Assembly (NCBI GenBank): GCA_043748345.1 | Contig: JAYTNJ010000086.1 | Location: 7,259 to 71,258 of the forward strand | DNA from: Saprospiraceae bacterium | Lineage (GTDB): Bacteria; Bacteroidota; Bacteroidia; Chitinophagales; Saprospiraceae | DNA length: 64,000 bases | Direction: 5' to 3' | Shown: positions 9,063 to 62,137 of the stretch, in pieces | Numbering within the stretch: position 1 is the first letter of the stretch | Layout of the letters: every line of letters starts with the position of its first letter | Notes under the pieces: generated by a model | Databases searched by the model: none | What the model saw: only the letters and a program-made list of their open reading frames with translations | Told to the model about the DNA's origin: nothing | Program-made: the position numbers and the translations under genes

Positions 9063-9284
9063 TAAATTGTATGAAAAAAAAGAGACTCTCTAATCACAAG
9101 ACAGTCTCTTAAAAATAAAACCCAATAATATAAGGGACTCCCGGAACCTCTATACTGACTAGATTTTTACTATTTTTATTGATTTTTTATAAAATATATT
9201 TCCGGCTTGAATAAAATAAATACCAGAAGCAAATGCCGTCATATCTACAGTCAATTCAGCATCTGATACTTTTTTTGATAGCAT
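9063..9284. repeat. Direct repeat copy B (terminator plus 3' end of the DUF4331-CHRD gene)
   Basis: Partner of 7925-8144. Confidence 0.85.
9072..9110 (-). terminator. Intrinsic terminator of the DUF4331-CHRD gene
   Basis: Perfect 8-bp stem aagagact / agtctctt (9080-9087, 9103-9110), followed on the minus strand by a run of 8-9 U. Confidence 0.7.
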
Positions 9285-12665: not shown

Positions 12666-12687
12666 TATGTTTTTTTTTATAGATTTA

Positions 12688-14439
12688 TTATTGTCTTACT
12701 TCTGTTCCACTCCACGGCATAGCCATGTAAGGGAATGTTTTTTGAAAAGGTTTATCATTTTTATCAACCCCGGTTGTGTACGTGAGTACATTTAACAACT
12801 TAGGTGTCACGGGGCTTGGAGACGTTGCTGGTATGTAATCATCATACCAAAGACCTACTGCAGCTAAAACTACTCCTGCTACTGCTTGAAGTTCGATTCT
12901 TGTGACATCATCTTCGAGTCTTCTGCCGTTAGGAAAGCCATCCATATTTGGAATAAATTCAAGATTTTTAGTGGTATTAAATGGAGCTACCGTCAATCCA
13001 ATAGCTGCTGCCTGAATTAAACCCAATGGACTAAAATTTGGATCATCTCTTGGTGTAGGTGGCACAGCCATATTGAGTCTCAACATATCGCCACCGTTCG
13101 GAAGGAAATTATTAACAAATGGTTTTCCCGCAGCAAGTGGATTGCCCCCTTTACCTGTTGCTAATTGATAAGGAATAACATTAGGCACTCCGGTGTGAAA
13201 AGCAGGCCACAAATCAACAGATCTTGGTTTTCCTGGTCCGGGCAATAAAAGAGTTCCAAAAACTGCGTCATCCAGAGCTGTCCCCGCAAGTGCAGCATTT
13301 CCTTTGAGCATGAATAATCCATCGGCTCCATTAGTAAAATCAAATGATCCCAGTGATTTCTGCTGAATACGTAGGGGTGCAAACGCCGGGACTGCTCCTC
13401 CAAATAAGTCATCATCCATATATAATCCCAACTCAGGATTATAAAAATATTTATCAAGTGTTGTTTCAGAAATCTCATCATAAGGACTAAGACGGTTCCA
13501 ATAATCTTTATCTCCTACTGCTATCACAGCTTCATTGGTCAATGGCATTCCCAGTCTTGAAACCTGGATCCAGTCACCTGAATGGTTGGCAGTAGCGCCG
13601 TTGGTAAGCGTTTTGATGGCCGGTCTGCTTGCAGATGCCCACACTCCAATGACATAATTACCATCCAAAATATTTGCTGGTACAGGTGCTGCACCGGTTT
13701 TAAGTAATGTTGTGATAGGTACTTGTATAGCAATAGAATGTACATTATATTTTGATAAACCGTCCCTTGCTTGTTCGCCTCCTTGTCTTGGTGCGTTACC
13801 CAAATCAAAAATACCGCCTAAATCTACATAGAAAGGATCATCAACTGGCCCGGCAAAAACTTTTTCGCCCGTTGTTGATGTTGTGATAGCTGCATTAAAT
13901 AGGGTAGCATATTTTGTATTCATTCCCACACCTGATTCGATAGATCTTGGACCAATATTTGGAGGCGGAACGATACCATTAGATACAACGGTCTGAAAAG
14001 ATACACCTCTATCTATACTCCTTTCTAGTTTATAGGTTGTTTTCAGATTTTGTTTTCCAAGCCGAATGTTAAAAAAAGTGCTAGGATCTTCATTGACTTT
14101 GGTAAAAGTAAACCTATAAACGATCTCATCTCCTGGCTTTGAAGCATCATTATCAATGTGAATTTCATACCTGATGTTTTCGCCAAAACTATAATAATTT
14201 GGGCCTCCAAAAGGTAGCTCACCAGGAATATAATTCGCAATGATAGTGATCATATTTGGATTATCCGGTGAGCGGAATGCATACAGATCCGTATTGTCAG
14301 CCAGCGGATCACTGGCTATCAAGGGTGCTTCCCTGTGACTCGACCCAAAAGCCAGATGGGTCATAAGAAATAGATTGAGGAAAAGGCAAAGATTTCTCCA
14401 GCTTAGTCCTCCAAACTTTACGTGTGAAATTGACTTCAT
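12688..14439 (-). CDS. Secreted DUF4331 domain protein (paralogue without CHRD or CTD)
   Basis: Collinear with the first ~580 aa of the downstream gene. GSSHREAPLIASDPLADNTDLYAF follows the signal peptide. The start is placed at ATG 14439 (MKSISHVKFGG...), because the longer ORF to 14493 only adds a non-signal-like extension. Confidence 0.85.
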   Translation of the reverse strand: MKSISHVKFGGLSWRNLCLFLNLFLMTHLAFGSSHREAPLIASDPLADNTDLYAFRSPDNPNMITIIANYIPGELPFGGPNYYSFGENIRYEIHIDNDASKPGDEIVYRFTFTKVNEDPSTFFNIRLGKQNLKTTYKLERSIDRGVSFQTVVSNGIVPPPNIGPRSIESGVGMNTKYATLFNAAITTSTTGEKVFAGPVDDPFYVDLGGIFDLGNAPRQGGEQARDGLSKYNVHSIAIQVPITTLLKTGAAPVPANILDGNYVIGVWASASRPAIKTLTNGATANHSGDWIQVSRLGMPLTNEAVIAVGDKDYWNRLSPYDEISETTLDKYFYNPELGLYMDDDLFGGAVPAFAPLRIQQKSLGSFDFTNGADGLFMLKGNAALAGTALDDAVFGTLLLPGPGKPRSVDLWPAFHTGVPNVIPYQLATGKGGNPLAAGKPFVNNFLPNGGDMLRLNMAVPPTPRDDPNFSPLGLIQAAAIGLTVAPFNTTKNLEFIPNMDGFPNGRRLEDDVTRIELQAVAGVVLAAVGLWYDDYIPATSPSPVTPKLLNVLTYTTGVDKNDKPFQKTFPYMAMPWSGTEVRQ

Positions 14440-14576
14440 TTTTTTAAAAATTGTTAGAAAGTTAACCAATACCCATGCAGGTGCATAAGCCATTGGGTGC
14501 CCAATGAGGCTGATAGCATAATATTTATTCCTGTTTTTTTTATTGCCGTAGTGGCAAAATAAACCTTCACATAATT

Positions 14577-38036: not shown

Positions 38037-38044
38037 TACTTTTG
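38037..38044 (+). promoter_or_regulatory. Candidate -7 box TActTTTG upstream of the fibre-like gene cluster
   Basis: The only TAnnTTTG match I found in the 480-bp intergenic region on the plus strand. It is ~150 nt upstream of ATG 38192, so a long leader would be implied. Confidence 0.3.
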
Positions 38045-38191: not shown

Positions 38192-38899
38192 ATGAGTTTT
38201 AAATTTTGCATTTTTTTTATACTGATGTGTTTATCAGCCAAGTTGGCTATTGCCCAAGTCAAAGTTGGTGACAACCCTACAGCCATTAACCCAAATGCTG
38301 TTTTGGAAATCGAAAGTACCAATCAAGGTGTTTTGATGCCAAGACTATCATTGCTTTCTACTATAAATCCTTCCCCACTGAATGCCCATATAGCCGGAAT
38401 GGCAGTGTACAATACTTCCACTATTGCTGATGTTTCACCTGGTTTTTATTATAATGATGGAGCTAAGTGGGTGAAATTTGCACAAAACTTTGTCGCAATA
38501 AGCGGCATAACCTTAACCCCAAATAATGAATTAAAACTAGGAGGGTCTCTAAATCAACCAACAGCTATCAACACAAATAATACCAACACACTTGCTTTAA
38601 CTGGACTAGGCGCTGGAAATGCTACTACCGATGAAGTAGTGACTATAGATCCATCGACAGGGGTATTAAAAAAATCTCCTATCTCTTCTTTGATTAAAGA
38701 AAAGCAGATGGTTATATTTTCTATAAATGGGCAAACCCAATTTCCCACCCCTTTCCCAATCACTGATATAGATAAAATAAATGTATACAGAAACGGTGCC
38801 AGAATAGGCGCAACGATTGTAAATGCCAATACTATTGTACTCGAAGCCGGAGTCATATGCGTAGCCGGTGATGAAATACGGATTGTTCAATTCAATTAA
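38192..38899 (+). CDS. Secreted fibre-like protein 1 (smallest paralogue)
   Basis: Signal peptide MSFKFCIFFILMCLSAKLAIAQ. N-terminal AVLEIESTNQGVLMPRLS...GMAVYNT...YYNDGAKWV domain. One LGG..GL.G..D.V module. C-terminal INVYRNGARIG...AGDEIRIVQFN mini-domain. Confidence 0.8.
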   Translation: MSFKFCIFFILMCLSAKLAIAQVKVGDNPTAINPNAVLEIESTNQGVLMPRLSLLSTINPSPLNAHIAGMAVYNTSTIADVSPGFYYNDGAKWVKFAQNFVAISGITLTPNNELKLGGSLNQPTAINTNNTNTLALTGLGAGNATTDEVVTIDPSTGVLKKSPISSLIKEKQMVIFSINGQTQFPTPFPITDIDKINVYRNGARIGATIVNANTIVLEAGVICVAGDEIRIVQFN

Positions 38900-38947
38900 A
38901 TATATTATTAATCTTACATTATTTTTTTTACAATTATCAAAATTCAA

Positions 38948-39826
38948 ATGAAAATGAAAAAGTATCTTTTACCTGTTTTTGCAATGGTCCTGATAGGATT
39001 TAGTGCCAATGCCCAGCTTGATTCTACCAAGGTTATTGATAACAAGGGTACCATTAAATACGTACTTAAAGCGGTTAATCCAAAAATTATCACTCAAAAT
39101 GATAGCCTTACACTGTATGTGACACCCAAACAACTGGGAGATAGCCTCAATAACTATGTCCAGTACGCAGATACTGCTGCAATGCTGATCAATTATCTGA
39201 ATAGCGTCTCGAATGGTTTAACTAAAACTGGCCAGAATGTAAAATTGGGTGGTACATTAACTGATGCTGCCACTACCATCACGACATCTGCCGGGAATCT
39301 ATTAAAAATTGCCGGTTTACAATCCGGATCAGCCACTTCCGATAGCGTCATGATGGTCGGAACCGATGGAACATTGAAAAGAATATCAGCATCTGCTCTG
39401 TTTAATGCTTTAACGTTTGAAAATGGTCTGACAAAAACAGGCAATACAATAACATTAGGAGGGGCACTAAACCAGCCAACCACAATCACCACTACAGGTA
39501 CGAATGTCTTAAAAATTGCAGGATTAGGAAGTGGCACTGCCGCTGACAGCCTTGTGGTTGTTGGTAGTGATGGTACACTGAAAAAAATTACCCAGGAGAG
39601 CCTGCTAAAAAGTGGTGAGCAAGTCTACACTGCTGCTGCACTTCAAACCATTTATAATGTTACGGATATGCCTGCAACTGTAAGTAAAGTTTGGGTATAT
39701 AGAAATGGGGCCAAACTTATTGGAGGAGAAGATTATCAAACATCCGCGGGTACAGTAACATTAACAGTTAATGTGGGACCTTTGGTTGCAGCTGGTGATA
39801 GAATCGAAGTGCAATGGGTCAAATAG
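38948..39826 (+). CDS. Secreted fibre-like protein 2
   Basis: Signal peptide ending ANAQ. Two tandem ~62-aa NGLTKTG..(I/V).LGG.L....TI.T...N.LKIAGL.SG.A.DS....G.DGTLK.I modules (about 39212-39403 and 39422-39607). C-terminal VWVYRNGAKL...AGDRIEVQWVK mini-domain homologous to protein 1. Confidence 0.8.
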   Translation: MKMKKYLLPVFAMVLIGFSANAQLDSTKVIDNKGTIKYVLKAVNPKIITQNDSLTLYVTPKQLGDSLNNYVQYADTAAMLINYLNSVSNGLTKTGQNVKLGGTLTDAATTITTSAGNLLKIAGLQSGSATSDSVMMVGTDGTLKRISASALFNALTFENGLTKTGNTITLGGALNQPTTITTTGTNVLKIAGLGSGTAADSLVVVGSDGTLKKITQESLLKSGEQVYTAAALQTIYNVTDMPATVSKVWVYRNGAKLIGGEDYQTSAGTVTLTVNVGPLVAAGDRIEVQWVK

Positions 39827-39873
39827 GTTTCTAATCTTTAAGAATTAAATTTTAATAAAGGATACTTTTTTAG

Positions 39874-41241
39874 ATGGAGTTGTTTGTAAAAATATTTCTG
39901 ACTTTGGTCTGTGTATGGTCTTTCGCTACGACTGGCTATACGCAGGTCAAGGTCATTGATCATAAGGGCAGCTTCAAATTAGTCGATTCGAGCAAATGGA
40001 CTCTGAGTGGTGTCAATATCTTCAATAAAAACAGCGGGAATGTCGGTATCGGCACCAACAATCCTCAGACAAAACTACATACTAACGGCACTATCAGATT
40101 TCAGGGATTGGGAACAAATACTTCTGATAATAGTATCCTCACCACTGATGCCAGTGGTAATGTAACGACCAGGACTTTGTCCAACTTACTCAGTGGCAAT
40201 GCTGTTACGTCACTGAACGGTTTGACAGGATCCCTCCAAACTTTGGTCATCGATTCATCGGGTACTAATTTTAATATTTTTTCGAGCGGCACTACTCATA
40301 CTTTTAATATTCCTACTGCAACTGCAACTAACAGGGGCTTATTGAAACCGTCAGACTGGACTATTTTTAATAATAAAGAAAATGCCATTTCTGCAGGTAC
40401 AACATCCCAATACTGGCGTGGAGATAAAACCTGGCAAACACTCAATACTGCAGCAGTGCCTGAACTGACCAATTTATATTTTTCTGATTCAAGGGCAAGA
40501 TCTGCGATATCTCTGACTACTACAGGTTCAAGCGGTGCAGCATCATATAACAATGTCTCCGGAGTATTAGATATTCCCATCTATAACAGAATAGACAGTA
40601 CTACAGCTTCAAACGGTATAACTCTGTCCGGAAAAGATATACGTCTCGGTGGCAACCTTACTCAAAATACCACAGTGACAAACAATGGTCAAAATCTGAC
40701 ATTTACAACCGGAGGTTCGTCTTTTAATATCACAGGATTGCCTGCAGGCACTACTACTGATAGTCTGATCACTGTAAATAATGGTCTTGTAAGGAAAATA
40801 GCAAATACATACAACCCGGCAGTTCTGGATATATATGATGCAGCAGGATCGCAAACACTTTCTACTACTCTTGCTGACTTAACTTTCGGTACCACTAATA
40901 TTGTAGATGCGGGGTACACTGTAGGGGGAAGTGGTTCACAGGTGACCATAACCAATACCGGTACATATAGGATAACCTACAGAGTTACTGTGAGAGTTAC
41001 CAATAATAACAGTTCCGGCGGAGAATTTCAGCTAACAAGAAATGGAACAGCAGTAGGAGGAAGCCTAGGTTATACATATCAGCACAATTCTGATAGATTG
41101 CAAGGTACCGTAACGGTGGTAAAACTACTGACCATAACTGCCAATGATATCATCAGAGTACAAGGTAGGAGGTATTCATCAGCCGGGAATCTGACTTTGA
41201 CCGCTGACGGTTCTTCTTTAGTTATCGAAAGAATAAAGTAA
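39874..41241 (+). CDS. Secreted tail-fibre-like protein 3 with jelly-roll-like C-terminal domain
   Basis: Signal peptide. GNVGIGTNNPQTKLHTNG, ATATNRGLLKPSDWTIFNNK and YWRGDKTWQ motifs, familiar from phage tail-fibre-like proteins. One LGG..GLPAG..DS module. C-terminal beta-rich domain (GTYRITYRVTVRV...LTRNGTAVGGS...ANDIIRVQG). Confidence 0.8.
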   Translation: MELFVKIFLTLVCVWSFATTGYTQVKVIDHKGSFKLVDSSKWTLSGVNIFNKNSGNVGIGTNNPQTKLHTNGTIRFQGLGTNTSDNSILTTDASGNVTTRTLSNLLSGNAVTSLNGLTGSLQTLVIDSSGTNFNIFSSGTTHTFNIPTATATNRGLLKPSDWTIFNNKENAISAGTTSQYWRGDKTWQTLNTAAVPELTNLYFSDSRARSAISLTTTGSSGAASYNNVSGVLDIPIYNRIDSTTASNGITLSGKDIRLGGNLTQNTTVTNNGQNLTFTTGGSSFNITGLPAGTTTDSLITVNNGLVRKIANTYNPAVLDIYDAAGSQTLSTTLADLTFGTTNIVDAGYTVGGSGSQVTITNTGTYRITYRVTVRVTNNNSSGGEFQLTRNGTAVGGSLGYTYQHNSDRLQGTVTVVKLLTITANDIIRVQGRRYSSAGNLTLTADGSSLVIERIK

Positions 41242-41246
41242 GTATC

Positions 41247-43103
41247 ATGGGACAAATATTAATTATCTCGATTTTCATATTTTTAAGAAATATCATTTAC
41301 TCGCAGACTACTGTTACGCCCGTTGAAATTTTAAATTTTCAGAATGGTACAGCTCAGGCGCGCGAAAATGATATTTATGTAGAAACTACCAATAATCAGT
41401 ATTATATAGGTCTGGCAAACGGAAAAGTTAAATTTTTGCAAGATACAGTCAGGATAAATTCTACATTGACAGGCAATGGCTCTGTTGGGAGTCCTATAGG
41501 AATAGCTCAACAAAGTGCTGCATCGGGACAAGTACTAAGCTGGAACGGATCAGCATGGGTACCTACCAATGCCGCACCTGCGACCACCACAGTCAGTAAT
41601 ACCGTGACAGCACCCAACAGTCTCAGGACTACGGTAAATGGCGTGGCAGGTGCCAACGTAAATATGATTACTAGTGTGTCAAACAGTTCTTCAGCAAACA
41701 ATCTCTCTACTTCTGTAAATGGGGTGACGGGAACCGGTGTACCCATAATAAATAGCAATACAGTATCAAGTGCATCAGGAAACATTACTAGTACAGTAAA
41801 TGGTATTAGTTCAGGAGCAATAGCCCTGGCCGGAATCACATCGACAAATTTATCAGCTACGGCAGGAATTGTTAATGCACAATTGGCCAATAGCAGTGTA
41901 ACAGTTAATGGAACTTCTATTGCTTTGGGAGGAAGTGGTACTGTTACAGCGGCACCATCCGGAACAGCTGGTGGTGATTTGACAGGAACCTACCCAAATC
42001 CGACTATAGGAACCGGAAAAGTTACTTCAACAAACATTTTGGATGGAACGGTTGCAAATGCAGATCTGTCCAATATGACCGCTCTTTCTGTAAAAGGTAA
42101 TGGTACAAACTCAGTTGCAGTGCCAATAGATATAGCAGCAGGAACTGATGGTCATATCCTAAGGAGAAGCGGTACCACACTTGGATTTGGTCAGGTAGCA
42201 ACTACAGGGATCGCAGACAATGCAATCACTTATACCAAAATTCAAAATGTAACAGCATCACGGCTTTTAGGAAATCCAACGGGAAGTTCGGCTGTTCCTT
42301 CAGAAATAACTTTAGGAACCGGATTAAGCTTTAGTGGCAGTGTACTTAATGCAGTAAATAGTGGCACAGTTACCAATGTAACTGGCACATCTCCCATATC
42401 TGTAGCCACCGGAACCACTACACCTGTTATCTCCATCACTAGAAATAACATTGTATCAGGCACCAGCTCCAATGTAGCCACCAACCCGCTTGTTCTTGAT
42501 GCAGGAGCTACTAACGCAGTGGTAGGTGGAGCCAATGCCACTTTGACAGTCAATAATACGGCACCACTCTGGAATGCTAATCAATTGCAGGGAAGGAATA
42601 TAGCTACAACCATTCCTTCAGATGGTCAAGCACTTGTTTGGAATGGTACTAATAGTAACTGGACACCATCATCAGGTATATCAAAAATATTGGTCGATGC
42701 AAATCGAATAACTACCTACAATCCTGGAGTAACCTACGCTACTATAATTTATGATAACGCTGTTATAAATGATGGGGCAGTTTATAATACTACTACTGGT
42801 ATTTTTACGGCACCTTCATCTGGTCTCTATCAAGTTATAGTTAGCAATATGTATGCCTGCGCAACCTCAGGAAATAATTCGCTAAGAGTAAGAATTATTT
42901 CAAATGGATCAACTAATATCGAAACTGCCGGTTTCATGAACTTCCAAGGGGGTGGTACATTTTCATTTAATATAAACAGCTCTACTTTTGTTATGTTAAC
43001 TGCCAACCAAACTATAAGTATCGAAGCTGGGGCAGAATCGGGTACAGTTAGTCCTGAAATCAGTACTGGTCAACATAATTTTAAAATAATCAGAATAAAC
43101 TAA
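41247..43103 (+). CDS. Secreted tail-fibre-like protein 4 with C1q/TNF-like C-terminal head
   Basis: Signal peptide. GQVLSWNGSAWVP / GQALVWNGTNSNWTP motifs. Three to four (S/T)TVNG(V/I)-type ~20-aa repeats. GDLTGTYPNPTIGTGKVTSTNILDGTVANADL-type repeats. C-terminal ..IIYDNAVINDGAVYNTTTGIFTAPSSGLYQV...RVRIISNGS...LTANQTISIE.. resembles gC1q heads. Confidence 0.8.
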   Translation: MGQILIISIFIFLRNIIYSQTTVTPVEILNFQNGTAQARENDIYVETTNNQYYIGLANGKVKFLQDTVRINSTLTGNGSVGSPIGIAQQSAASGQVLSWNGSAWVPTNAAPATTTVSNTVTAPNSLRTTVNGVAGANVNMITSVSNSSSANNLSTSVNGVTGTGVPIINSNTVSSASGNITSTVNGISSGAIALAGITSTNLSATAGIVNAQLANSSVTVNGTSIALGGSGTVTAAPSGTAGGDLTGTYPNPTIGTGKVTSTNILDGTVANADLSNMTALSVKGNGTNSVAVPIDIAAGTDGHILRRSGTTLGFGQVATTGIADNAITYTKIQNVTASRLLGNPTGSSAVPSEITLGTGLSFSGSVLNAVNSGTVTNVTGTSPISVATGTTTPVISITRNNIVSGTSSNVATNPLVLDAGATNAVVGGANATLTVNNTAPLWNANQLQGRNIATTIPSDGQALVWNGTNSNWTPSSGISKILVDANRITTYNPGVTYATIIYDNAVINDGAVYNTTTGIFTAPSSGLYQVIVSNMYACATSGNNSLRVRIISNGSTNIETAGFMNFQGGGTFSFNINSSTFVMLTANQTISIEAGAESGTVSPEISTGQHNFKIIRIN

Positions 43104-43223
43104 TATTGGAAACCATCATTATTTTACATTATAGAAAATAGTCTTAAGCCTATAGTCATTATCAAACATTTAATAAAAAAAAGTAAAGTTATTGGCACAA
43201 AAATTATCATTATAATTAACATA

Positions 43224-46200
43224 TTGATATTGTGTCACCAATTGTTCGGTCAATCCGCTACAAAAGGCATTACATTTGTCCACGGCACTAAGGAAATGAC
43301 TATTTTCAGAGCTCACAGTTTTATCAATGGTGGCTCTGGTCTTTTGCCCGGTATTGTGGGTACAAAACGAAATGGTCCCACATTCCTTTCATTTGCAGGC
43401 AACGCTTCAGTTGCCAATGTTTCAGATGGAGCCCACGTAGACGGTTATGTCAAAAACTACAATATCCCTAATTTTATCTTTCCTGTCGGAGATAATGGAG
43501 TTTATGGGCCTGTAGGAATTGACGCAACAACTTTATCTTCGCCTGTCACATCTGCGTATTTCAGAGCTAATCCTGATGTTGCTGTTACTTCTTCAGTGCT
43601 GGGGGGGAATGAGCTTCCTCTGCCTGCAGGGGCGCCTTTCTCCACATTATCAATGGGCATAGGGATTATTAAAGTAAGTAAAATCGAATATTGGGACTTA
43701 AATGGTACATCGCCAGTCAAAATAACTCTATACTGGAACTCTGGCTCTCAGATAAATACCCTGACCGGAAATATGCTTTCTTCACTGCGGTTATCAGGAT
43801 GGGACGGTTCAAAATGGGTCGAGATTCCAGCTGCCATTAATTTGGGTTCTTCGTTGGTATCAGGAAGTATTACCTCAAACACTGCTTTAGCACCGAATCA
43901 ATATAATGTTTACACTTTTGGGTCCACTGATTGTGTCAATAAATCTTTACTTACTATCTCTGATCTGAGTTGCAATGGAAGTACTTACAATATTTCTTTT
44001 TTAAGTAATGGAGCATTTGTAACAACAAGTGCAGGAACCATCAGCGGAAATAGTATCCTAAATATACCAATAGGCACCAATGTAACATTATCGGCAGATA
44101 ACGGACTGGGCTGTCTCAACAGGATAGTAGTTACAGGGCCTAAAAGCTGTACCGACAACTGTATTTTACCTATTTTTTCTGTGGGTCAGGCTATTTGCAA
44201 TGGCCCGGGAAGCACCACTTACAGGGTAAGTTTTTCTGAGCTTTCAGGGGCTACCATCAGTACAAATGCCGGAATAAGATCAGGAAATATTATTAATAAT
44301 ATACCCATTGGAACAAATCTAATGATTACTGCTTCAAATTCTTCATGCAATTTTTCATACACCATAACTAGTCCTGCAAGTTGTACCAATCCTTGTGAAA
44401 ATCCAAGAATCAGTATCAGCGGACCATTTTGTTCTCCAGATATCTCCAATTATTATGTCAATTACGTCTCAATACCTGGAGCTACTGTTAGTTCTGATTT
44501 TGGTGCAGTAAAACCTGGACAGATCACAGACATTCCATACAATATCAAATCTACCATCATAGTAAGATATCCTGGCTGCCCGGATCAAACTTTGGAAATA
44601 TTGCCACCTGTATGTAAAAACACATCTGCTTTAGGAGAATTTGTTTGGCATGATCTTAATGCAAATGGTCAGCAGGATCCTGGAGAACATGGATTTCCCG
44701 GACTTCAAATTAACTTATTTCGGGCCAGTGGAGCATATATAACTACAACTTTTACCAATCCCTTGGGTAAATATTTATTTGAAAATTTATACCCGGGGAG
44801 TTATTACTTGGAATTTAAGACCCCTGCCGGTTTTGAACGTACATTTTCCAATAGAGGAAATGACAATACTGATAATGATATCGACGGTATCAATGGCCCT
44901 GGTACCACATCTGCCACTCTGTTGACACTGGATGAAAAAGATTTTACTTTATCAGCCGGTTTTTATAAATGTGTGCCAGTAGGAGATCTTGTCTGGTATG
45001 ACATAAATAAAAATGACGTTTGGGATTCTAATGAAAATGGCATCAATGGATTAATAGTAAATCTTTGGCGAAATAATTCCGGCTCCTGGGATATTTACGA
45101 TTTTAAATATACGGGACAAAAGCCTGGAACACCTTCTGATGATGGATACTTTTTGTTTTGTGCACCCCCGGGAGAATATTATCTGGAAGTAATTATGCCT
45201 CCATTAGGTTTGGTCAGGGCAAGGCCAAATATAGGAAACAATGAGGAATTTGACAGCGATATCAAATCCAATGGTTCTTCTGATATTTTCCAGTTGATAT
45301 CCGGACAGACAAAAACTGATTTTGGCGCAGGATTTTACCCAATGGCATTAGCCGGAAACCTCGTGTGGAAAGACAATAATGTAAATGGGATACAAGATGC
45401 AAATGAACCAAGGGTACCTGGTATTAAAGTTGAAGCCATAGAATTAGGTACCGGAAAGGTCGTAAGGACTACTTTTACCAATGATGATGGTATTTATAAA
45501 ATTGAATATCTGGAAAAACAGCAATATTATATTCGTTTTGCCCCACCTTCAGGATTTGGAGCTACTGTTCCGAGAGCTACCAGTGATAATCTGGACAGCG
45601 ATGTTGACCATAGTTATGGCCCTTATACTACCCGTGGCTTTTTGTTTGAGCCTGGATTAGCAAATGACAACATTGATATGGGTCTGGCTTTTGGTGTACT
45701 ACCTGTTGATTGGTTGGACATCTACGCAAGGAGAGTTAATAATTCCCATATCATATCCTGGAGTGTTTCGGGTGAAGTAAATGTAAGCCATTACCTGGTA
45801 GAAAGGAGGAGAAATAATGAAAATGATTTCCGACCAATATCGGGTAAGGTAGATGCTAAAGGAAACTCAAATCAACTTCATAACTATGATTATACTGATA
45901 GCGATTCTGAAAGTCCGGGCACTTATTATTACAGGGTTAAACAGGTAGATTTTGATGGTCAGTTTACATACAGTAATGTGGTCAAACTGGATTTTTTAGA
46001 AGAAAATCAAGTTCGTTTATATCCAAATCCTGCCAGAAGCGAAACTAGTGTTCAGATTTCATTGGCTCATGACGCAGAGGTATTAATCGAAATGTATGAT
46101 GGGGCTTCAAAACTTGTGAAAGTATTTAAGTTTGCCGAAGTTCAGAAATCAGGTGAGAAAACTTATGTCTTAAATCTGGAGGATGTCCCTGTAGGAGCAT

Positions 46201-46262
46201 ACAATATCAGTATTTCAATCAATGGTGCCCAAGTCATCAGAAAACTTATAAGAATAGAATAG
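43224..46262 (+). CDS. Large T9SS-sorted adhesin-like protein: N-terminal domain, three Cys-bounded modules, three SdrD B-like (Cna-B type) repeats, T9SS C-terminal domain. True start probably upstream of 43224.
   Basis: SdrD-B-like repeats (GEFVWHDLNANGQQDPGE.G.PG, GDLVWYDINKNDVWDSNENGINGL, GNLVWKDNNVNGIQDANEPRVPG). C-terminal LYPNPARSETSVQI...GAYNISISINGAQVIRKLIRIE (T9SS CTD). The signal-peptide-like sequence (KKSKVIGTKIIIIINILILCHQLFGQS) lies mostly upstream of the TTG chosen by the ORF track. Confidence 0.85.
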   Translation: MILCHQLFGQSATKGITFVHGTKEMTIFRAHSFINGGSGLLPGIVGTKRNGPTFLSFAGNASVANVSDGAHVDGYVKNYNIPNFIFPVGDNGVYGPVGIDATTLSSPVTSAYFRANPDVAVTSSVLGGNELPLPAGAPFSTLSMGIGIIKVSKIEYWDLNGTSPVKITLYWNSGSQINTLTGNMLSSLRLSGWDGSKWVEIPAAINLGSSLVSGSITSNTALAPNQYNVYTFGSTDCVNKSLLTISDLSCNGSTYNISFLSNGAFVTTSAGTISGNSILNIPIGTNVTLSADNGLGCLNRIVVTGPKSCTDNCILPIFSVGQAICNGPGSTTYRVSFSELSGATISTNAGIRSGNIINNIPIGTNLMITASNSSCNFSYTITSPASCTNPCENPRISISGPFCSPDISNYYVNYVSIPGATVSSDFGAVKPGQITDIPYNIKSTIIVRYPGCPDQTLEILPPVCKNTSALGEFVWHDLNANGQQDPGEHGFPGLQINLFRASGAYITTTFTNPLGKYLFENLYPGSYYLEFKTPAGFERTFSNRGNDNTDNDIDGINGPGTTSATLLTLDEKDFTLSAGFYKCVPVGDLVWYDINKNDVWDSNENGINGLIVNLWRNNSGSWDIYDFKYTGQKPGTPSDDGYFLFCAPPGEYYLEVIMPPLGLVRARPNIGNNEEFDSDIKSNGSSDIFQLISGQTKTDFGAGFYPMALAGNLVWKDNNVNGIQDANEPRVPGIKVEAIELGTGKVVRTTFTNDDGIYKIEYLEKQQYYIRFAPPSGFGATVPRATSDNLDSDVDHSYGPYTTRGFLFEPGLANDNIDMGLAFGVLPVDWLDIYARRVNNSHIISWSVSGEVNVSHYLVERRRNNENDFRPISGKVDAKGNSNQLHNYDYTDSDSESPGTYYYRVKQVDFDGQFTYSNVVKLDFLEENQVRLYPNPARSETSVQISLAHDAEVLIEMYDGASKLVKVFKFAEVQKSGEKTYVLNLEDVPVGAYNISISINGAQVIRKLIRIE

Positions 46263-58376: not shown

Positions 58377-61300
58377 TTAAAATTTGATCACCTTTTTACT
58401 TGCTATCCTTATTCCGTCAGTCAATCTAATAAAATAAATACCAGCCGGAATACTTTCTAACGATATCCTTGTACTTTCAGTATTTACTTTACCTGATAGA
58501 ATAACCTTTCCGGATAAGTCATTCAATTCATAACTATGTAAGGAAGAAGCCTTTCCTAAGGTTAATATATTGATTTCTCCGTTGGTTGGATTAGGAGAAA
58601 TGAACACATCTTCGCCCACATCAGCATCTGATGTAGCATTTAAAATACTCTTAGTTCTTGATATCTCAAACTTTGAAATCGAAACCCATCCCCCTTGTCC
58701 ATCAGTCACTGTAAAAGTAAAAAAATCTAAACCTTCAGTGTCAGAAATATCATCAAAAAGGAGTTTGGATGCATTTATTTCTGCTTGAGAAAACTTTGCA
58801 CCTACTTCCACCTGTATCCCATTAATATACAATTTTCCTTGTGTCGGAGTGGATACCAATGTAAATATCAATTCATCAGCAGCATTATTGTTATCACTGG
58901 CTAACAGAAGTAAATTACTGATTACACTTTTATTGCCAGGATGAATTTTGAGCCCTTCATTTTTTACTATAAATGGACTTGATATAGAAATATTGGAACA
59001 TAATTCCAGATTAAACTCTTGTAGCCTTCCTCCTTCACCTGATTGTTTATCGTCAATCCTGAGCCTCCAGCTTCCTTTTATAGATTCATTGTGAAGCCCT
59101 GCCAGGGGAATATCGGGTCTATATATAAGCCCGGTATTTATAGGACATTGAAAAAAAGTCTCAGCCTGATCATCCAATCCCAAATTTAAATTTTTTTGAG
59201 TCCCGCATTTTCTACTCCACAGATTAATACTTTTCCCTGATGGTGCCAGAAGATATGCTTCAAGGTCTACCAGTCTGTTATGCTCTGCTCTAATGAGTTT
59301 TATATTAATATCACTGGCTATTCCATCATCTCCTACCAGAACGGGTATCTCAACTGACGGAGCTCCCGATGATGAAATGTTAATAGTTTGTGCACCTGAA
59401 TTATAGATTTTACATGAAAGTGCTTCTGTCATAAAAGCCTGAGTATCTGTCCATGGGCCCGGACCACAGCCATTTTTTGCCCTGACCCTCCAATAATGTA
59501 TAGTAGATTTATTCAGAATAGCACCTGACGTTGTGATCAAACCTGTCTGAGATTTACTGAAAATAGTATTGGAAGCAGTAAAATCAGGTCCTGTGGCAAC
59601 CTGAATTTCGTAAGAATAGGCATCTGTTTTTTTACCCCAGCTGAATTCAGGCAGAGCTGCGACACCAGAAGTCCCATTTACAGGAGTAAAAGTTGCAATG
59701 CCAGCCAAATCATTTGCTAAAATATTAATTTGTAAAACTCTCTCCAAAGTGTCCAACCCGCTTGCAAATGCCCGAATAACTATTTGTCCGTTAAAGTTAC
59801 CTTTTATATTTGTTGTATTAATGTTTAAGGCATTAGGGCTTCCTGCCTTCACAACATTTGAACCAAATACTGCCGTTACCCCTTCTGGTAGCGTTGAAGC
59901 TACTTCAAAAGAAATATTACCATCAAATCCGACCAAACCAAGCGTCGTAAAATTAACTATACCAACATTGGGCTGACAGATGTTGATTTCATTTTGAGCC
60001 GTCTCAAAATAAATTCCTGCTTTAGTAGGTTGTTCAATTTTTGATGGCAATATGGATGATGTAAGAAAAATATTATCTGCAGCTTTTATGACAATTCGAA
60101 AAAAATTTGAAATTTTGTTAGGAATTATTACATTATGGCTTCCGTCATTGGGCACATTCAAAGCGAGGGGAACTAGATTTGGATCACCTGTCTTCAATAT
60201 TCCATTGAATGACCCGTAGATGTTTACGGACTTACAATTAACAGGCGCTCGATCTGTATTTGCAACATCCCACGTAACAGTTGCTACCTGACCCACTTTA
60301 AATCTGGCATCAATTTCAGGAAAAGTAATCTTGAAAGGCCCAGCCAAGTCAGCAGAATTTATAGAGTAGTCTTCCCATGAGACACCACCACCTGCAATAT
60401 TATTGTCCCTTACAGTAATTCTGAAGGAAAGTTTTCTGCCTGTATTGGGGAGTACTTCTGTTTTGTCTGTAAAATTGCCTGAAGCAATATTGGATGCTCT
60501 AGGAAAAAAACGTACATCACCAGTGGATGAAGGCCTGAATGATCGGAAAAGTGGAGCCGTGGCAGAAGCAGTTCCAAGTGATGCAATCTCTCCAGTATCG
60601 TATTGCTCCCAACAGTAAGACAAAACATCTCCATCTTCGTCGGTTGCTTTTGCAGCTAGCTCAAATGGTGTAAGCACTGGAATAAAATGGCTTTTCACTG
60701 GCTTGGTGATCACTGGAAAGTGATTTCCTGTTAGTATTTTCTGAGCACAGGCATATGCGTTTCCTGAACTCAATGTTTTAGCATACATCTGATCCAATGA
60801 CCCTACATGGAAATAGTCATCATTATCACTTGCAACGTTATCAGTGCCACATAAACCTGCATAAGACATAATTGTGGAACCACTACCCGGTTCAAAAGCT
60901 GTATTTGGTGCTCTCTGATCTGCAGAAGATGTACAAACATTCCAGGAATGAGAAGCATTAAGTTGGTGACCCACTTCATGGGCTAATATCCTGGTAACCA
61001 AAACCGATAATGATTCACTTCCCTGACAAGTCACACCATTTCCTTTAACTGATTGACATAAAGAACCGAAACTTGCAACTCCGCCAATATTATCAGTACA
61101 TGCAATTGTCAATACATGACCGATATCATAAGATGTTGATGAAATAATGGAATTCAGTTTGCTAGTATTTACCTGCAATAATTTTCGACCTTCCGTAGGG
61201 GTGTCATAAGGATCGGTAGCTCCGTTCAGAAATATCAGTTTATCATTATCATTTATCAAGACGAATCTTACCGCCATTTCTTTTTCATAGATAAGATTCA

Positions 61301-62012
61301 TTCTATTGACCAAAGCAACCATATCTGCCAGGCAAGCAGCAACAGTACCTCTTCTGGCCCCCCACTCCCCAGTACATGCAATGGCTAACCTGTACACTCT
61401 TAGCTCAACTTCCGGTGCATTTCTTTGACCCGGTCTGAAATAAGTTTTTTCAGTCCTATAGGTCTCGTTTACTCCACAAAAACCCACATTATGTTCGTTT
61501 GAATCTTTGTAGTCTTTAGTATTGTAGACAATATATTCTGAAGTATTTTCAGATGAATACGGATCAATATATTTTTCTCCATCCGGAGTGTGTATGGCAG
61601 CGTGAAATCCTCGCTGGGAGACTGAAAACCTGATTTGTTTTAATTTATTGCTTGCTGAAAACCCTTTGTAGGATTTTATATCGGGATATCTTGCTGCCAG
61701 TTCGCTTTCCATGATAGGAGATTCATTTATTACAAATGATTCAAGGCTTCCATCTGGCATCGGTATGTCGATAGAAAAGTTTTTAGTGGCGCTCCTGGAA
61801 CCGCTAAATTCAATTGGAGCATTTTTAAGATAAGATTTTAAACCAGCCATATCCAAGCTGAAAGTTTCATATTTTTCAGGAATGATTTCTCTACTGGTAT
61901 TTGATCTTAATCCAAATCCAGATTCTTCTGTCTTTTTCCAAAAGGCTTGGGATTGTCCGCTTTGTGGGACAATTAAAATAAAAATTATTGGCAAAAGCAA
62001 AAATCTGATCAT
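58377..62012 (-). CDS. Large secreted zinc metalloprotease (reprolysin/M12B-like) with proprotein-convertase P-domain and T9SS C-terminal domain
   Basis: HEVGHQLNASHSW zincin motif. P-domain-like segment (..DLEAYLLAPSGKSINLW...GSWRLRIDDKQSGEGGRLQEFNLELC). C-terminal ISPNPTNGEINI...GIYFIRL...KKVIKF (T9SS CTD). Confidence 0.85.
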   Translation of the reverse strand: MIRFLLLPIIFILIVPQSGQSQAFWKKTEESGFGLRSNTSREIIPEKYETFSLDMAGLKSYLKNAPIEFSGSRSATKNFSIDIPMPDGSLESFVINESPIMESELAARYPDIKSYKGFSASNKLKQIRFSVSQRGFHAAIHTPDGEKYIDPYSSENTSEYIVYNTKDYKDSNEHNVGFCGVNETYRTEKTYFRPGQRNAPEVELRVYRLAIACTGEWGARRGTVAACLADMVALVNRMNLIYEKEMAVRFVLINDNDKLIFLNGATDPYDTPTEGRKLLQVNTSKLNSIISSTSYDIGHVLTIACTDNIGGVASFGSLCQSVKGNGVTCQGSESLSVLVTRILAHEVGHQLNASHSWNVCTSSADQRAPNTAFEPGSGSTIMSYAGLCGTDNVASDNDDYFHVGSLDQMYAKTLSSGNAYACAQKILTGNHFPVITKPVKSHFIPVLTPFELAAKATDEDGDVLSYCWEQYDTGEIASLGTASATAPLFRSFRPSSTGDVRFFPRASNIASGNFTDKTEVLPNTGRKLSFRITVRDNNIAGGGVSWEDYSINSADLAGPFKITFPEIDARFKVGQVATVTWDVANTDRAPVNCKSVNIYGSFNGILKTGDPNLVPLALNVPNDGSHNVIIPNKISNFFRIVIKAADNIFLTSSILPSKIEQPTKAGIYFETAQNEINICQPNVGIVNFTTLGLVGFDGNISFEVASTLPEGVTAVFGSNVVKAGSPNALNINTTNIKGNFNGQIVIRAFASGLDTLERVLQINILANDLAGIATFTPVNGTSGVAALPEFSWGKKTDAYSYEIQVATGPDFTASNTIFSKSQTGLITTSGAILNKSTIHYWRVRAKNGCGPGPWTDTQAFMTEALSCKIYNSGAQTINISSSGAPSVEIPVLVGDDGIASDINIKLIRAEHNRLVDLEAYLLAPSGKSINLWSRKCGTQKNLNLGLDDQAETFFQCPINTGLIYRPDIPLAGLHNESIKGSWRLRIDDKQSGEGGRLQEFNLELCSNISISSPFIVKNEGLKIHPGNKSVISNLLLLASDNNNAADELIFTLVSTPTQGKLYINGIQVEVGAKFSQAEINASKLLFDDISDTEGLDFFTFTVTDGQGGWVSISKFEISRTKSILNATSDADVGEDVFISPNPTNGEINILTLGKASSLHSYELNDLSGKVILSGKVNTESTRISLESIPAGIYFIRLTDGIRIASKKVIKF

Positions 62013-62137
62013 AAACACTTTAGTGAATCCTTTATTAAATAATATTGAATGATTGGAATGAGTTCCATATTAGAATAATTTGAGAATAAAATAGAAGATA
62101 AACGTATGAAAATTTGATTTTGTTCATTGTCAACTAT

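Follow-up and report, generated by a model that had tools for sequence, protein, structure and literature searches.

A conserved gene cassette of Bacteroidota predicted to encode a fibre adhesin

We analyzed a 64,000-nt stretch of DNA (the window) from a metagenome-assembled genome (MAG) of Saprospiraceae (GCA_043748345.1, contig JAYTNJ010000086.1, positions 7,259 to 71,258). The window contains five co-oriented genes, designated P1 to P5, separated by spacers of exactly 48, 47, 5, and 120 nt and flanked by housekeeping genes. The features of the locus are summarized in Table 1. A regex scan detected a candidate Bacteroidota-type −7 promoter motif upstream of P1, whereas no such motif was found in the P1-P2, P2-P3, or P3-P4 spacers. 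This is weak evidence for a single transcription unit.

Table 1 Features of the P1–P5 locus, with positions in the window.
Feature	Position	Strand	Length	Description
Candidate promoter motif	38037–38044	+		TACTTTTG, about 150 nt upstream of P1
P1	38192–38899	+	235 aa	Adaptor-like protein; signal peptide aa 1-21 (cleaved between AIA and Q); N-domain aa 23-98; LGG module aa 105-168; C-terminal docking-type domain aa ~170-235
P2	38948–39826	+	292 aa	Most conserved member; signal peptide aa 1-22 (between ANA and Q); invariant N-terminal strand TKV(I/V)DNKGTIK aa 27-37; LGG modules aa 87-153 and 156-221; docking-type domain aa 225-292
P3	39874–41241	+	455 aa	Fibre; signal peptide aa 1-23 (between GYT and Q); conserved N-terminal half aa 24-235 with strand QVKVIDHKG and motif GNVGIGTNNPQTKLH; LGG module aa 244-310; TNF/C1q-like head aa ~315-455
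P4	41247–43103	+	618 aa	Second fibre with a different N-terminus; signal peptide aa 1-19 (between IYS and Q); DUF5907 repeat aa 321-371; C1q-type head aa ~480-618
P5	43173–46262 (from TTG 43224 if the first canonical start is used)	+	1012 aa from TTG 43224; about 1029 aa from ATA 43173	T9SS type A cargo; N-terminal P5N domain aa ~1-240; three Cys-rich repeats aa 237-464; three SdrD_B repeats aa ~469-810; pre-CTD domain aa ~817-930; Por_Secre_tail sorting domain aa 932-1009

The initial annotation had described five secreted, tail-fibre-like proteins with shared modules at this locus, and our analysis confirmed this observation, with several corrections. P1 and P2 shared 40% identity over 134 aa (E 1e-19), and P2 was similar to P3 (E 2e-11). 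Using an HMM, the ~65-aa LGG module was found twice in P2, once in P1 (E 1e-18), and once in P3 (E 1e-13), but not in P4 or P5. The C-terminal VYRNGA domain was present in P1 and P2 only. The post-signal strand was shared by P2 and P3 (E 2e-3), while P1 has a different one (QVKVGDNP). The absence of Cys from the mature parts of P1 to P4, as had been claimed, was incorrect for P1 (C223) and P4 (C538). The first four proteins had also been described as extremely rich in Thr, Gly, Asn, and Ser. The content of these residues was 47-48% in P3 and P4 and 37% in P2, but only 32% in P1, compared with 26.2 ± 3.9% (maximum 32.7%) in the other genes of the window.

The signal peptides of P1 to P4 were judged by eye. 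P5 has a complete signal peptide (KKSKVIGTKIIIIINILILCHQLFGQ, cleaved before S) only if translation starts at the non-canonical codons ATA 43173 or ATT 43191; from TTG 43224, only 10 residues precede the predicted cleavage site. All five proteins have Gln at +1 after the predicted cleavage site, as expected from the published Bacteroidetes Q-rule.

We next evaluated the C-terminal heads of P3 and P4. P4 matched Pfam C1q at 25.7 bits against a cut-off of 23.7, and DUF5907 at 34.7 bits, and it also matched the gC1q domains of EMILIN and CTRP5. The P3 head was modelled at pLDDT about 90, and the model matched TNF/C1q/BclA/ExsFA folds (E 4e-9, TM 0.70-0.78). The stalk regions were modelled with low confidence as monomers, and trimerisation is thus inferred from the fold family only. 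The P3 and P4 heads share no detectable sequence similarity. The phage-fibre motifs that had been recognized in these two proteins were also confirmed: P3 residues 160-195 were 58-78% identical to minor tail proteins of actinophages, and P4 residues 257-354 matched phage tail fibre proteins.

Profile and structure searches had been suggested beforehand as a way to check the identity of the proteins. The top four hits of the P3 family profile against solved structures were all mosaic adhesive trimer (MAT) fibres of Bdellovibrio, including 8ol4 (E 2.8e-4) and 8ond (E 1.1e-3), and the match to Bd2439 covered both the stalk motif and the tip. The AF2 model of P1 had a mean pLDDT of 86, with 97 in the C-domain. 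Using Foldseek, about 70 residues matched chains in podophage portal-tail and nozzle-fibre complexes at rmsd 2.5-2.7 Å. The identification of these chains as the fibre is our reading of the entry titles and chain lengths. In addition, residues 179-213 of the P1 profile matched residues 11-45 of LME-1 orf22 (E 0.008), and the whole P1 model matched phage fibres, tailspikes, and depolymerases. The C-terminal domain of P1 and P2 resembles the tail-attachment domain of T7-type phage fibres, although the match is weak by sequence and modest by fold (E about 1e-3), and the domain is located at the N-terminus in phages. Homologues of P1 carry the precomputed family PF26696 (PTL_trimer).

P5 contained three SdrD_B repeats and a T9SS sorting domain detected by both Por_Secre_tail (35.3 bits, cut-off 27) and TIGR04183 (32.2 bits, cut-off 23). 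P1 to P4 showed no match to the Por_Secre_tail or CHU_C models, and P5 shared no module with them. The N-domain family of P5 comprised 889 representative clusters and was nearly always N-terminal in proteins with CHU_C or Por_Secre_tail, many of them large adhesins of up to 6910 aa that need not be linked to cassettes.

Whether the genes are inherited together in this order in other Bacteroidota had been raised in advance as a test, and scattered, unrelated homologues would have counted against a common system. P2 had 852 homologous clusters, which were 60-81% identical over the full length among the non-identical hits listed. The new finding is that the order P1, P2, fibre recurs in 54 cassettes from about 50 species genomes of Saprospiraceae and Chitinophagaceae, and in cultured Flavobacteriaceae. 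Among the 54 cassettes, a P1-like gene was upstream in 54 and a fibre with a P3-type N-terminus was downstream in 47; most of the remaining seven were cut by a contig end. The same parts occurred in the same order as in the window in Tenacibaculum singaporense and Winogradskyella litorisediminis, and they also occurred in Polaribacter butkevichii and Flavobacterium succinicans.

A protein with the P5N domain and a T9SS sorting domain was also a recurrent member, in a short form of 383-442 aa. A ~424-aa protein of this type, which matches both residues 46-220 and residues 817-1010 of P5 and carries Por_Secre_tail, was immediately upstream of P1 in 22 cassettes. A P5N protein with a T9SS sorting domain (type A or B) was located on the same strand near at least 28 of 49 cassettes. 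In Tenacibaculum and Winogradskyella, proteins of 383-390 aa with the type B sorting domain CHU_C were in the same position as P5. The Flavobacteriaceae versions matched P5 residues 32-250 (E 5e-18 and 8e-15) and carried CHU_C at 85 and 103 bits. However, about 40% of cassettes with enough flanking sequence had no P5N protein within 12 kb on the same strand, although some of those had another CTD-bearing neighbour. The T9SS partner is therefore frequent but not obligatory.

The fibre genes showed evidence of tip swapping. The N-terminal half of P3 was 50-70% identical to proteins with different C-termini, and chimeras with the P3 N-terminus and the P4 C-terminus were found. Tip and stalk of P4 were swapped between close relatives, and the P4 head was replaced in a relative whose P1 to P3 were 75-83% identical to those of the window. 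F. succinicans has a 184-aa mini-fibre consisting only of the N-terminal strand and a head 39% identical to the P3 head.

Phage structural genes adjacent to the cassette in related genomes had been named beforehand as the result that would indicate a decayed prophage. No phage, tail, sheath, baseplate, or integrase gene was found among the window ORFs scanned with Pfam. Clustering of 53 loci showed no other gene family, phage-derived or otherwise, conserved around the cassette, which sits in varied housekeeping contexts in about 50 species genomes. P1 and P2 had no relatives in 50,697 phage genomes, and P2 had none in 2.9 million IMG/VR viral contigs. The locus was syntenic on both sides with a related genome.

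Taken together, the interpretation in the initial annotation was partly supported. A chromosomal fibre or adhesin system rather than a prophage remnant was supported, as was a functional link between the fibres lacking a sorting domain and the T9SS-sorted fifth protein. In contrast, the description of five paralogues of increasing size needs revision. The unit is a conserved core of two small adaptor-like proteins (P1 and P2) plus one or more variable-tip fibres (P3 and P4), with an unrelated T9SS partner (P5), and the size ladder is incidental, as homologous fibres range from 184 to 1316 aa.

We consider, with moderate confidence, that the locus is one copy of a conserved Bacteroidota cassette encoding a multi-component, extracytoplasmic fibre built from phage-receptor-binding-protein-like modules, most likely a surface adhesin linked to T9SS. 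How the fibres cross the outer membrane is still open. The data show that all members carry Sec-type signal peptides, within the limits given above; that P3 and P4 are fibres with a conserved N-terminal part, a stalk of variable length, and exchangeable heads of a fold that forms obligate trimers; that P1 and P2 are of near-constant length without a variable tip and each end in a docking-like domain of ~70 residues; and that P5 is a T9SS cargo whose N-terminal domain plus a sorting domain recurs in cassettes. The remainder of the model is inferred. P3 and P4 would form homotrimeric fibres whose heads bind glycans or other surface ligands on prey, hosts, or substrates, as Bdellovibrio MAT fibres with TNF-like tips do, and P1 and P2 would act as adaptors or connectors. 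No experiment or complex prediction shows that any of these proteins touch each other or reach the cell surface, and assembly on P5 or co-export with it was not tested. In this view, P5 is exported by T9SS and attached to the outer membrane through its C-terminus, with its N-terminal domain pointing outward as the anchor or hub for the fibres, or possibly as their carrier through the wide T9SS translocon. The Cys-rich and SdrD_B repeats of P5 in this clade would be a stalk that lifts the hub off the surface.

Other explanations were considered. It is possible, but less likely, that the genes are an array of independent adhesins that reach the surface without T9SS, and that the T9SS protein is simply another co-regulated adhesin. 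MAT fibres are surface-displayed with only a Sec signal (PMC10769870) in a genus in which T9SS is not known, so T9SS need not be the export route, and the cassettes without a nearby P5N protein and the P5N adhesins not necessarily linked to cassettes are in agreement with this reading. However, the gene order is kept across three families, and the high conservation of P1 and P2, their lack of a variable tip, and their docking-type domain argue for assembly rather than independent action. Moreover, the cassette-linked T9SS protein is usually a minimal form without adhesin repeats. It is doubtful that the proteins act only in the periplasm or on the inner face of the outer membrane. They have only Sec signal peptides, with no lipobox, no T9SS sorting domain, and no β-barrel, and no route by which the fibres would cross the outer membrane, a question already posed in the initial annotation, is known. 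Nevertheless, the hypervariable and swappable TNF/C1q, BclA_C, and lectin-like heads are typical of proteins that recognise foreign surfaces, the closest solved relatives are surface fibres, and the cassette is linked to a secreted T9SS protein.

It is also unlikely that P1 to P4 are themselves T9SS substrates with an unrecognised C-terminal signal, either the ~70-residue β-domain of P1 and P2 or the jelly-roll heads. The cassette appears confined to Bacteroidota lineages that also encode T9SS cargo, and the C-terminal domains of P1 and P2 are small β-domains of CTD-like size with very conserved last strands. Besides the lack of matches to sorting-domain models, these domains match a phage fibre docking domain instead, and P3 and P4 end in a different fold. 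Fibre C-termini vary freely among homologues, which is the opposite of a conserved sorting signal. A decayed prophage, tailocin, or contractile-injection-system remnant is very unlikely. Short modules are shared with phage tail fibres and minor tail proteins, and the P1 model matches phage fibres and tailspikes, but, in addition to the negative searches of the window ORFs scanned with Pfam, of the 53 clustered loci, and of the phage (P1 and P2) and IMG/VR (P2) collections, all members have signal peptides, whereas phage and injection-system fibres assemble in the cytoplasm. The synteny on both sides with a related genome also speaks against this reading.

We compared the cassette with the closest systems. 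The MAT fibres of Bdellovibrio bacteriovorus (Bd2133, Bd2439, Bd1334, and Bd2734; PMC10769870) are chromosomal, carry a Sec signal only, and have a conserved N-terminal part whose anchor is unknown, exchangeable tips including TNF-like lectin domains, and a stalk motif of the GNVGIGT..P..KL type. Similarity of the N-terminal domains was not tested. MAT proteins are about 1000 aa, belong to a different phylum, and are described as single genes; the fibres of the cassette are shorter (184-1316 aa), always follow P1 and P2, and are often accompanied by a T9SS-sorted protein. T7-type podophage tail fibres (the gp17 N-terminal tail-attachment domain) and the anchor modules of branched tailspike systems (CBA120 TSP4, K64-1, and RaK2) resemble P1 and P2 in the docking-type domain with marginal sequence similarity, but the proteins of the cassette have signal peptides and there is no virion. 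In the exosporium nap of Bacillus, BclA, a collagen-like fibre with a TNF-like head, is anchored on ExsFA/BxpB. ExsFA, BxpB, and BclA-C were among the best structural matches of the P3 head, homologues hit Pfam BclA_C, and the BclA fibre is held on a dedicated anchor through an N-terminal peptide according to the title of PDB 9h3d. This system belongs to Gram-positive spores, with a collagen stalk and neither Sec export nor T9SS. T9SS type A and type B cargo adhesins, which carry SdrD_B, Ig, or cadherin repeats with Por_Secre_tail or CHU_C, resemble P5 in its sorting domain and its N-domain family.

We listed the open reading frames (ORFs) of the window and confirmed five co-oriented genes, P1 to P5, separated by spacers of 48, 47, 5, and 120 nt. 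The coordinates are summarized in the table, together with those of the other features treated here. The modules reported to be shared among these proteins are real. P1 and P2 were 40% identical over 134 aa (E 1e-19), and P2 and P3 shared a module (E 2e-11), whereas P5 shared nothing with the others. HMMs built from the P2 family placed the ~65-aa 'LGG' module twice in P2, once in P1, and once in P3, the VYRNGA C-terminal domain in P1 and P2, and the post-signal strand in P2 and P3. Thus, the observation made in the initial annotation held, although some of its details required correction. The mature parts of the first four proteins were said to lack Cys, but P1 has Cys223 and P4 has Cys538. 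The same four proteins were described as extremely rich in Thr, Gly, Asn, and Ser; the summed content was 47-48% in P3 and P4 and 37% in P2, but only 32% in P1, against a window background of 26.2 ± 3.9%.

Coordinates of the cassette genes and of the other features described in the text
Feature	Sequence	Coordinates	Strand	Length
P1	window	38192-38899	+	235 aa
P2	window	38948-39826	+	292 aa
P3	window	39874-41241	+	455 aa
P4	window	41247-43103	+	618 aa
P5	window	43224-46262	+	1012 aa from the first canonical start
Open P5 reading frame from the P4 stop codon	window	43104-43226		
Region compared for upstream synteny	window; L002	30921-37689; 1-8000		
Other T9SS cargo	window	9159-14493 and 58377-62018		
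Family with weak ArabFuran-catal match	L058	12593-13492		
Family with weak ArabFuran-catal match	L023	14043-15918		
Family with weak ArabFuran-catal match	L048	14059-17811		
Family with weak ArabFuran-catal match	L052	12910-13881		
Family with weak ArabFuran-catal match	L054	9842-10876		
Mini-fibre (Flavobacterium succinicans)	L061	4597-5151		184 aa
Two proteins upstream of the P1-like gene (Polaribacter butkevichii)	L059	8763-9997		172 aa and 236 aa
Protein with PATR repeats	L009	12706-14307		~530 aa
Protein with PATR repeats	L012	12326-13918		~530 aa
Multiple cassettes	L015	9149-18915		
Multiple cassettes	L024	9166-18605		
Multiple cassettes (one genome)	L036, L044, and L047			

Judged by eye, P1 to P4 have standard signal peptides without a lipobox, in agreement with the initial annotation. 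All five proteins have Gln at +1, which fits the published Bacteroidetes Q-rule. The initial annotation also assigned an N-terminal signal peptide to P5. The P5 reading frame stays open all the way from the P4 stop codon and encodes KKSKVIGTKIIIIINILILCHQLFGQ|S, but no ATG, GTG, or TTG precedes TTG 43224. A full signal peptide is obtained only if translation starts at ATA 43173 or ATT 43191. The start is probably one of these rare codons, or else there is a sequence error; these observations leave the signal peptide of P5 neither established nor excluded. An identical sequence occurs on an independent contig (locus L001), and the orthologue in L002, the corresponding locus of the related genome GCA_016722285.1, has a normal TTG start and a full signal peptide.

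The closest homologues come from Saprospiraceae MAGs. A divergent efflux operon (TetR, OEP, HlyD, and AcrB) lies upstream of the cassette, and an unknown membrane protein, LptD_2, Amidase_3+SPOR, and MlaD lie downstream. Elsewhere the window contains ordinary chromosomal genes, including two further T9SS cargo proteins. One is a 1168-aa protein with DUF4331, CHRD, and Por_Secre_tail, located next to a 601-aa DUF4331 paralogue, and the other is a 1213-aa reprolysin-like metalloprotease with a cadherin-like domain and Por_Secre_tail. GCA_016722285.1 has the same five genes with the same downstream neighbours, and its upstream neighbours (Peptidase_M14 and others) lie further upstream in the window. 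The locus is therefore chromosomal and syntenic on both sides. The efflux operon sits directly upstream of the cassette in the window only; in L002 the gene just upstream of P1 is a pyridoxamine oxidase, indicating an insertion or deletion. tblastn searches with all cassette proteins found no further copy of any module elsewhere in the window.

We next searched the proteins against family models. P5 carries three SdrD_B repeats and a C-terminal type A T9SS sorting domain, with PF18962 (Por_Secre_tail) at 35.3 bits against a cut-off of 27 (residues 932-1009) and TIGR04183 at 32.2 bits against 23. No type A (Por_Secre_tail) or type B (CHU_C) sorting domain was found in P1 to P4 at E ≤ 1 in Pfam or NCBIfam. 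P4 matched Pfam DUF5907 and, only just above the gathering score, C1q (25.7 bits against 23.7, residues 497-561), which was supported by weak matches to the gC1q domains of EMILIN-1 and CTRP5. Pfam and NCBIfam gave nothing for P1, P2, and P3; sub-threshold matches to LptE, DUF5979, and hotdog were disregarded. A PHROGs scan gave only weak matches of unknown function. PF26696 'PTL_trimer' is listed as a precomputed family for P1 homologues, showing that at least one of its domains has been catalogued, but our Pfam scan returned no match to it and no paper naming it was found; neither the part of P1 it covers nor the meaning of 'PTL' was established. Sequence searches against solved structures found nothing credible for the P5 N-domain family (FlgL, E 0.005, low-complexity-like) or for the P2 family. 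A scan for sigma-70 promoters and terminators, which is uninformative for Bacteroidota, found 44 promoter-like sites against 33 expected and 2 terminator-like sites against 5.3 expected.

The C-terminal part of P3 (residues ~315-455, about 140 residues) was predicted by AF2 with a pLDDT of about 90. As expected for a ten-strand jelly-roll head of the C1q/TNF superfamily, Foldseek matched this part of the model to TNF/C1q-type trimers, namely 4-1BBL, ExsFA/BxpB, BclA-C, EDA, and C1q-like 3 (E 4e-9 to 1e-7, target TM 0.70-0.78). BLAST found no similarity between the P3 and P4 heads. Homotrimer formation was not examined for either head, as structure prediction covered monomers only and no pseudo-multimer with linked chains was attempted. 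The top four hits of the P3 family profile against all solved structures were the Bdellovibrio MAT fibres 8ol4 (E 2.8e-4), 8ond (E 1.1e-3), 8on4, and 8oml, and the next three were ExsFA, BxpB, and ExsF. MAT fibres are Sec-exported, surface-displayed trimeric fibres with a conserved N-terminus, an unidentified anchor, and swappable tips that include TNF-like lectins (PMC10769870). P3 and P4 share with them a variable C-terminal tip, which in MAT fibres is an S74 chaperone or another fold, including TNF-like ones: both have TNF-like heads, and homologues carry C1q, BclA_C, and other C-termini on the same N-terminal half. The GNVGIGT-type stalk motif is present once in P3 (aa 55-70), but the stalk was modelled at low confidence as a monomer, so these data do not settle whether P3 has the trimeric β-helix or β-prism stalk of MAT fibres. 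The conserved MAT-type N-terminal domain was not compared, as the PDB entries cover only the tips, and surface display was not assayed.

The AF2 model of P1 was confident (pLDDT 86, and 97 in the last 65 residues). Against solved structures, about 70 residues superposed at 2.5-2.7 Å on chains in podophage tail complexes of LME-1, HRP29, PhiM1 ('nozzle and fibre'), P-SCSP1u, and A4 (9efk_AE, 8es4_F, 8vbx_S, 8i4m_M, and 9k09_U; E 1.6e-3 to 1e-1, probability 1.00, 68-78 columns). The P1 family profile aligned residues 179-213 with residues 11-45 of LME-1 orf22 (E 0.008). Against predicted viral structures, the named hits were mostly tail fibres, tailspikes, and depolymerases. We read the C-terminal domain of P1 and P2 as the counterpart of the tail-attachment domain at the N-terminus of T7-type fibres; the evidence for this is modest, and with no Pfam match the comparison does not decide the assignment either way.

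Comparative genomics gave the main new result. The P2 family is strongly conserved, with 60-81% identity over the full length among the listed non-identical hits. A profile scan of one genome per species returned 53 loci from about 50 genomes of Saprospiraceae and Chitinophagaceae (Ferruginibacter and Agriterribacter), all of which are MAGs. Co-inheritance of the genes in a fixed order had been proposed in advance as a test of the initial annotation, and comparison of the ORFs of these loci with the window proteins gave 54 cassettes. A P1-like gene lies immediately upstream of P2 in 54 of 54, and a fibre with the P3-type N-terminal half lies immediately downstream in 47 of 54; most of the rest are cut by a contig end. 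The fibre length ranges from about 320 to 1316 aa.

Clustering of all ORFs of these loci found no other conserved family except proteins related to P5. These are mostly about 424 aa, match both the N-terminal domain of P5 (aa 46-220) and its pre-CTD plus sorting-domain region (aa 817-1010), and carry Por_Secre_tail. P5 is therefore this cassette protein with about 600 residues of Cys-rich and SdrD_B repeats inserted. Such a protein starts immediately upstream of P1 in 22 cassettes, and lies on the same strand within 12 kb in at least 28 of the 49 cassettes that have enough flanking sequence. The latter count adds two loci with full-length P5 orthologues to the 26 detected automatically. In Saprospiraceae cassettes without a protein bearing the P5 N-domain (P5N protein), a protein with PATR (passenger-associated transport) repeats directly follows the fibre gene (L009 and L012).

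The P1 family extends to cultured Flavobacteriaceae. The locus lies at JBGFGJ010000128.1:106355-127302 (GCA_041224515.1) in Tenacibaculum singaporense, at JBHTJL010000009.1:1250384-1267292 (GCA_042675765.1) in Winogradskyella, and on JMTM01000025.1 in Flavobacterium succinicans. In Tenacibaculum singaporense, a P1-like protein of 315 aa, a P2-like protein of 235 aa, a fibre of 293 aa, an unknown protein of 299 aa, and a fibre of 516 aa are followed by a 390-aa protein with the P5 N-domain (31% identity, E 5e-18) and a type B sorting domain (CHU_C, 85 bits). Winogradskyella litorisediminis has a minimal four-gene version (302, 235, 251, and 383 aa, the last with CHU_C at 103 bits) in the same order as the window. 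In Polaribacter butkevichii, a 172-aa protein that is little more than a Por_Secre_tail domain lies upstream of P1-like, P2-like, and two fibre genes. A second protein, of 236 aa, upstream of the P1-like gene in this locus (L059) ends in an aromatic residue and looks like a small outer-membrane β-barrel, but has no Pfam match. Flavobacterium succinicans has P1-like and P2-like genes and a mini-fibre (L061) that consists only of a signal peptide, the VVDNKGT strand, and a TNF-like head 39% identical to the P3 head, suggesting that the N-terminal strand plus the head may be the minimal functional unit. The motif (K/R)VIDNKGT directly after the signal peptide is shared by P2 and the fibres in all these lineages.

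The fibres are modular. The N-terminal half of P3 is 50-70% identical to many proteins with unrelated C-termini, including C1q and BclA_C, and chimeras with the P3 N-terminus and the P4 C-terminus exist. Between close relatives, P1 to P3 are colinear at 68-83% identity, whereas P4 behaves differently. In L005, the locus of one such relative, P4 aligns only to residue 492, so the head is replaced, and in L002 it aligns only from residue 243.

The discovery of adjacent phage structural genes in related genomes had been named as an observation that would overturn the initial annotation, which regarded the locus as a chromosomal, domesticated system rather than a prophage remnant. No capsid, terminase, tail, sheath, baseplate, or integrase gene was found among the window ORFs scanned with Pfam, which are efflux, LptD, amidase, MlaD, peptidases, and sensors, and no gene family other than the cassette was conserved across the 53 loci. 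Only short motifs of P3 (aa 160-195) and P4 (aa 257-354) matched phage tail proteins. P1 and P2 had no match in 50,697 phage genomes, and P2 had no relative in IMG/VR. With the signal peptides and the housekeeping contexts, this rules out a prophage, tailocin, or injection-system remnant for practical purposes.

The interpretation in the initial annotation was thus supported in part. What our analysis demonstrates is a conserved cassette of two tip-less small proteins, one or more variable-tip fibres and, often, a T9SS-sorted protein with a specific N-terminal domain. The mechanism, in contrast, is inferred: the fibres would trimerise through their TNF-type heads and bind external ligands, as MAT fibres do, and P1 and P2 would be connectors that use the phage-type docking domain. 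The T9SS protein would be attached by its C-terminal end so that its N-domain points outward, serving as anchor or hub and possibly as carrier through the T9SS pore. However, about 40% of cassettes lack a nearby P5N protein, and the P5 N-domain also heads many unrelated large adhesins (889 representative clusters, in proteins of 158-6910 aa). In addition, MAT fibres reach the surface of Bdellovibrio, a genus in which T9SS is not known. Neither contacts between the proteins nor their location were demonstrated, and, as in the initial annotation, no route across the outer membrane was identified. The function and the role of T9SS therefore rest on inference.

A more far-reaching possibility, which we consider doubtful, is that the cassette encodes a previously undescribed Bacteroidota surface organelle. 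In this view, phage-derived trimeric fibres that lack any T9SS sorting signal would be recruited, through their conserved N-terminal strand ((K/R)VIDNKGT) and the P1/P2 adaptors, to a dedicated T9SS cargo protein. That protein would carry them through the T9SS translocon as a folded complex ('piggy-back' secretion) and then hold them on the cell surface. This would be the first case of hitch-hiking export through T9SS, and would also name candidates for the so far unidentified anchor of MAT-like fibres.

Exported, phage-fibre-like adhesins have been characterised only in Bdellovibrio, where neither their anchor nor their route across the outer membrane is known. The cassette shows a comparable system to be widespread in Bacteroidota, including Saprospiraceae, Chitinophagaceae, and Flavobacteriaceae, the last of which includes fish-associated Tenacibaculum. 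Literature searches for T9SS with tail-fibre or C1q proteins, and for MAT-like fibres in Bacteroidota, found no description of this cassette, although absence from the literature searched does not prove that it is undescribed. We regard the system as belonging to a known kind, MAT-like, phage-derived surface fibres, within which it is set apart by its fixed multi-gene architecture and its T9SS linkage. The cassette always comes with two conserved small partners, and often with a T9SS-sorted partner, which are concrete candidates for the anchoring and export machinery. Cultured carriers exist, so the question is directly testable. The swappable TNF/C1q-type tips suggest a fast-evolving recognition system for prey, hosts, particles, or other cells, which bears on attachment, predation, and colonisation in activated sludge and in freshwater and marine habitats.

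A further family of about 290-345 aa recurs just downstream of the fibre genes, sometimes in tandem, in several Chitinophagaceae-type cassettes and in Tenacibaculum, and is absent from the window. It has a weak, mostly sub-threshold Pfam match to ArabFuran-catal and may be an accessory component. One of the loci with this family, L052, is on a contig labelled Phycisphaerales bacterium and assigned to Planctomycetota; its cassette has a 586-aa P2-like protein, and the contig is probably a mis-binned Bacteroidota contig, although this was not checked. Some genomes carry two tandem cassettes, or three dispersed ones, with different fibre lengths, suggesting a repertoire of tips within one cell.
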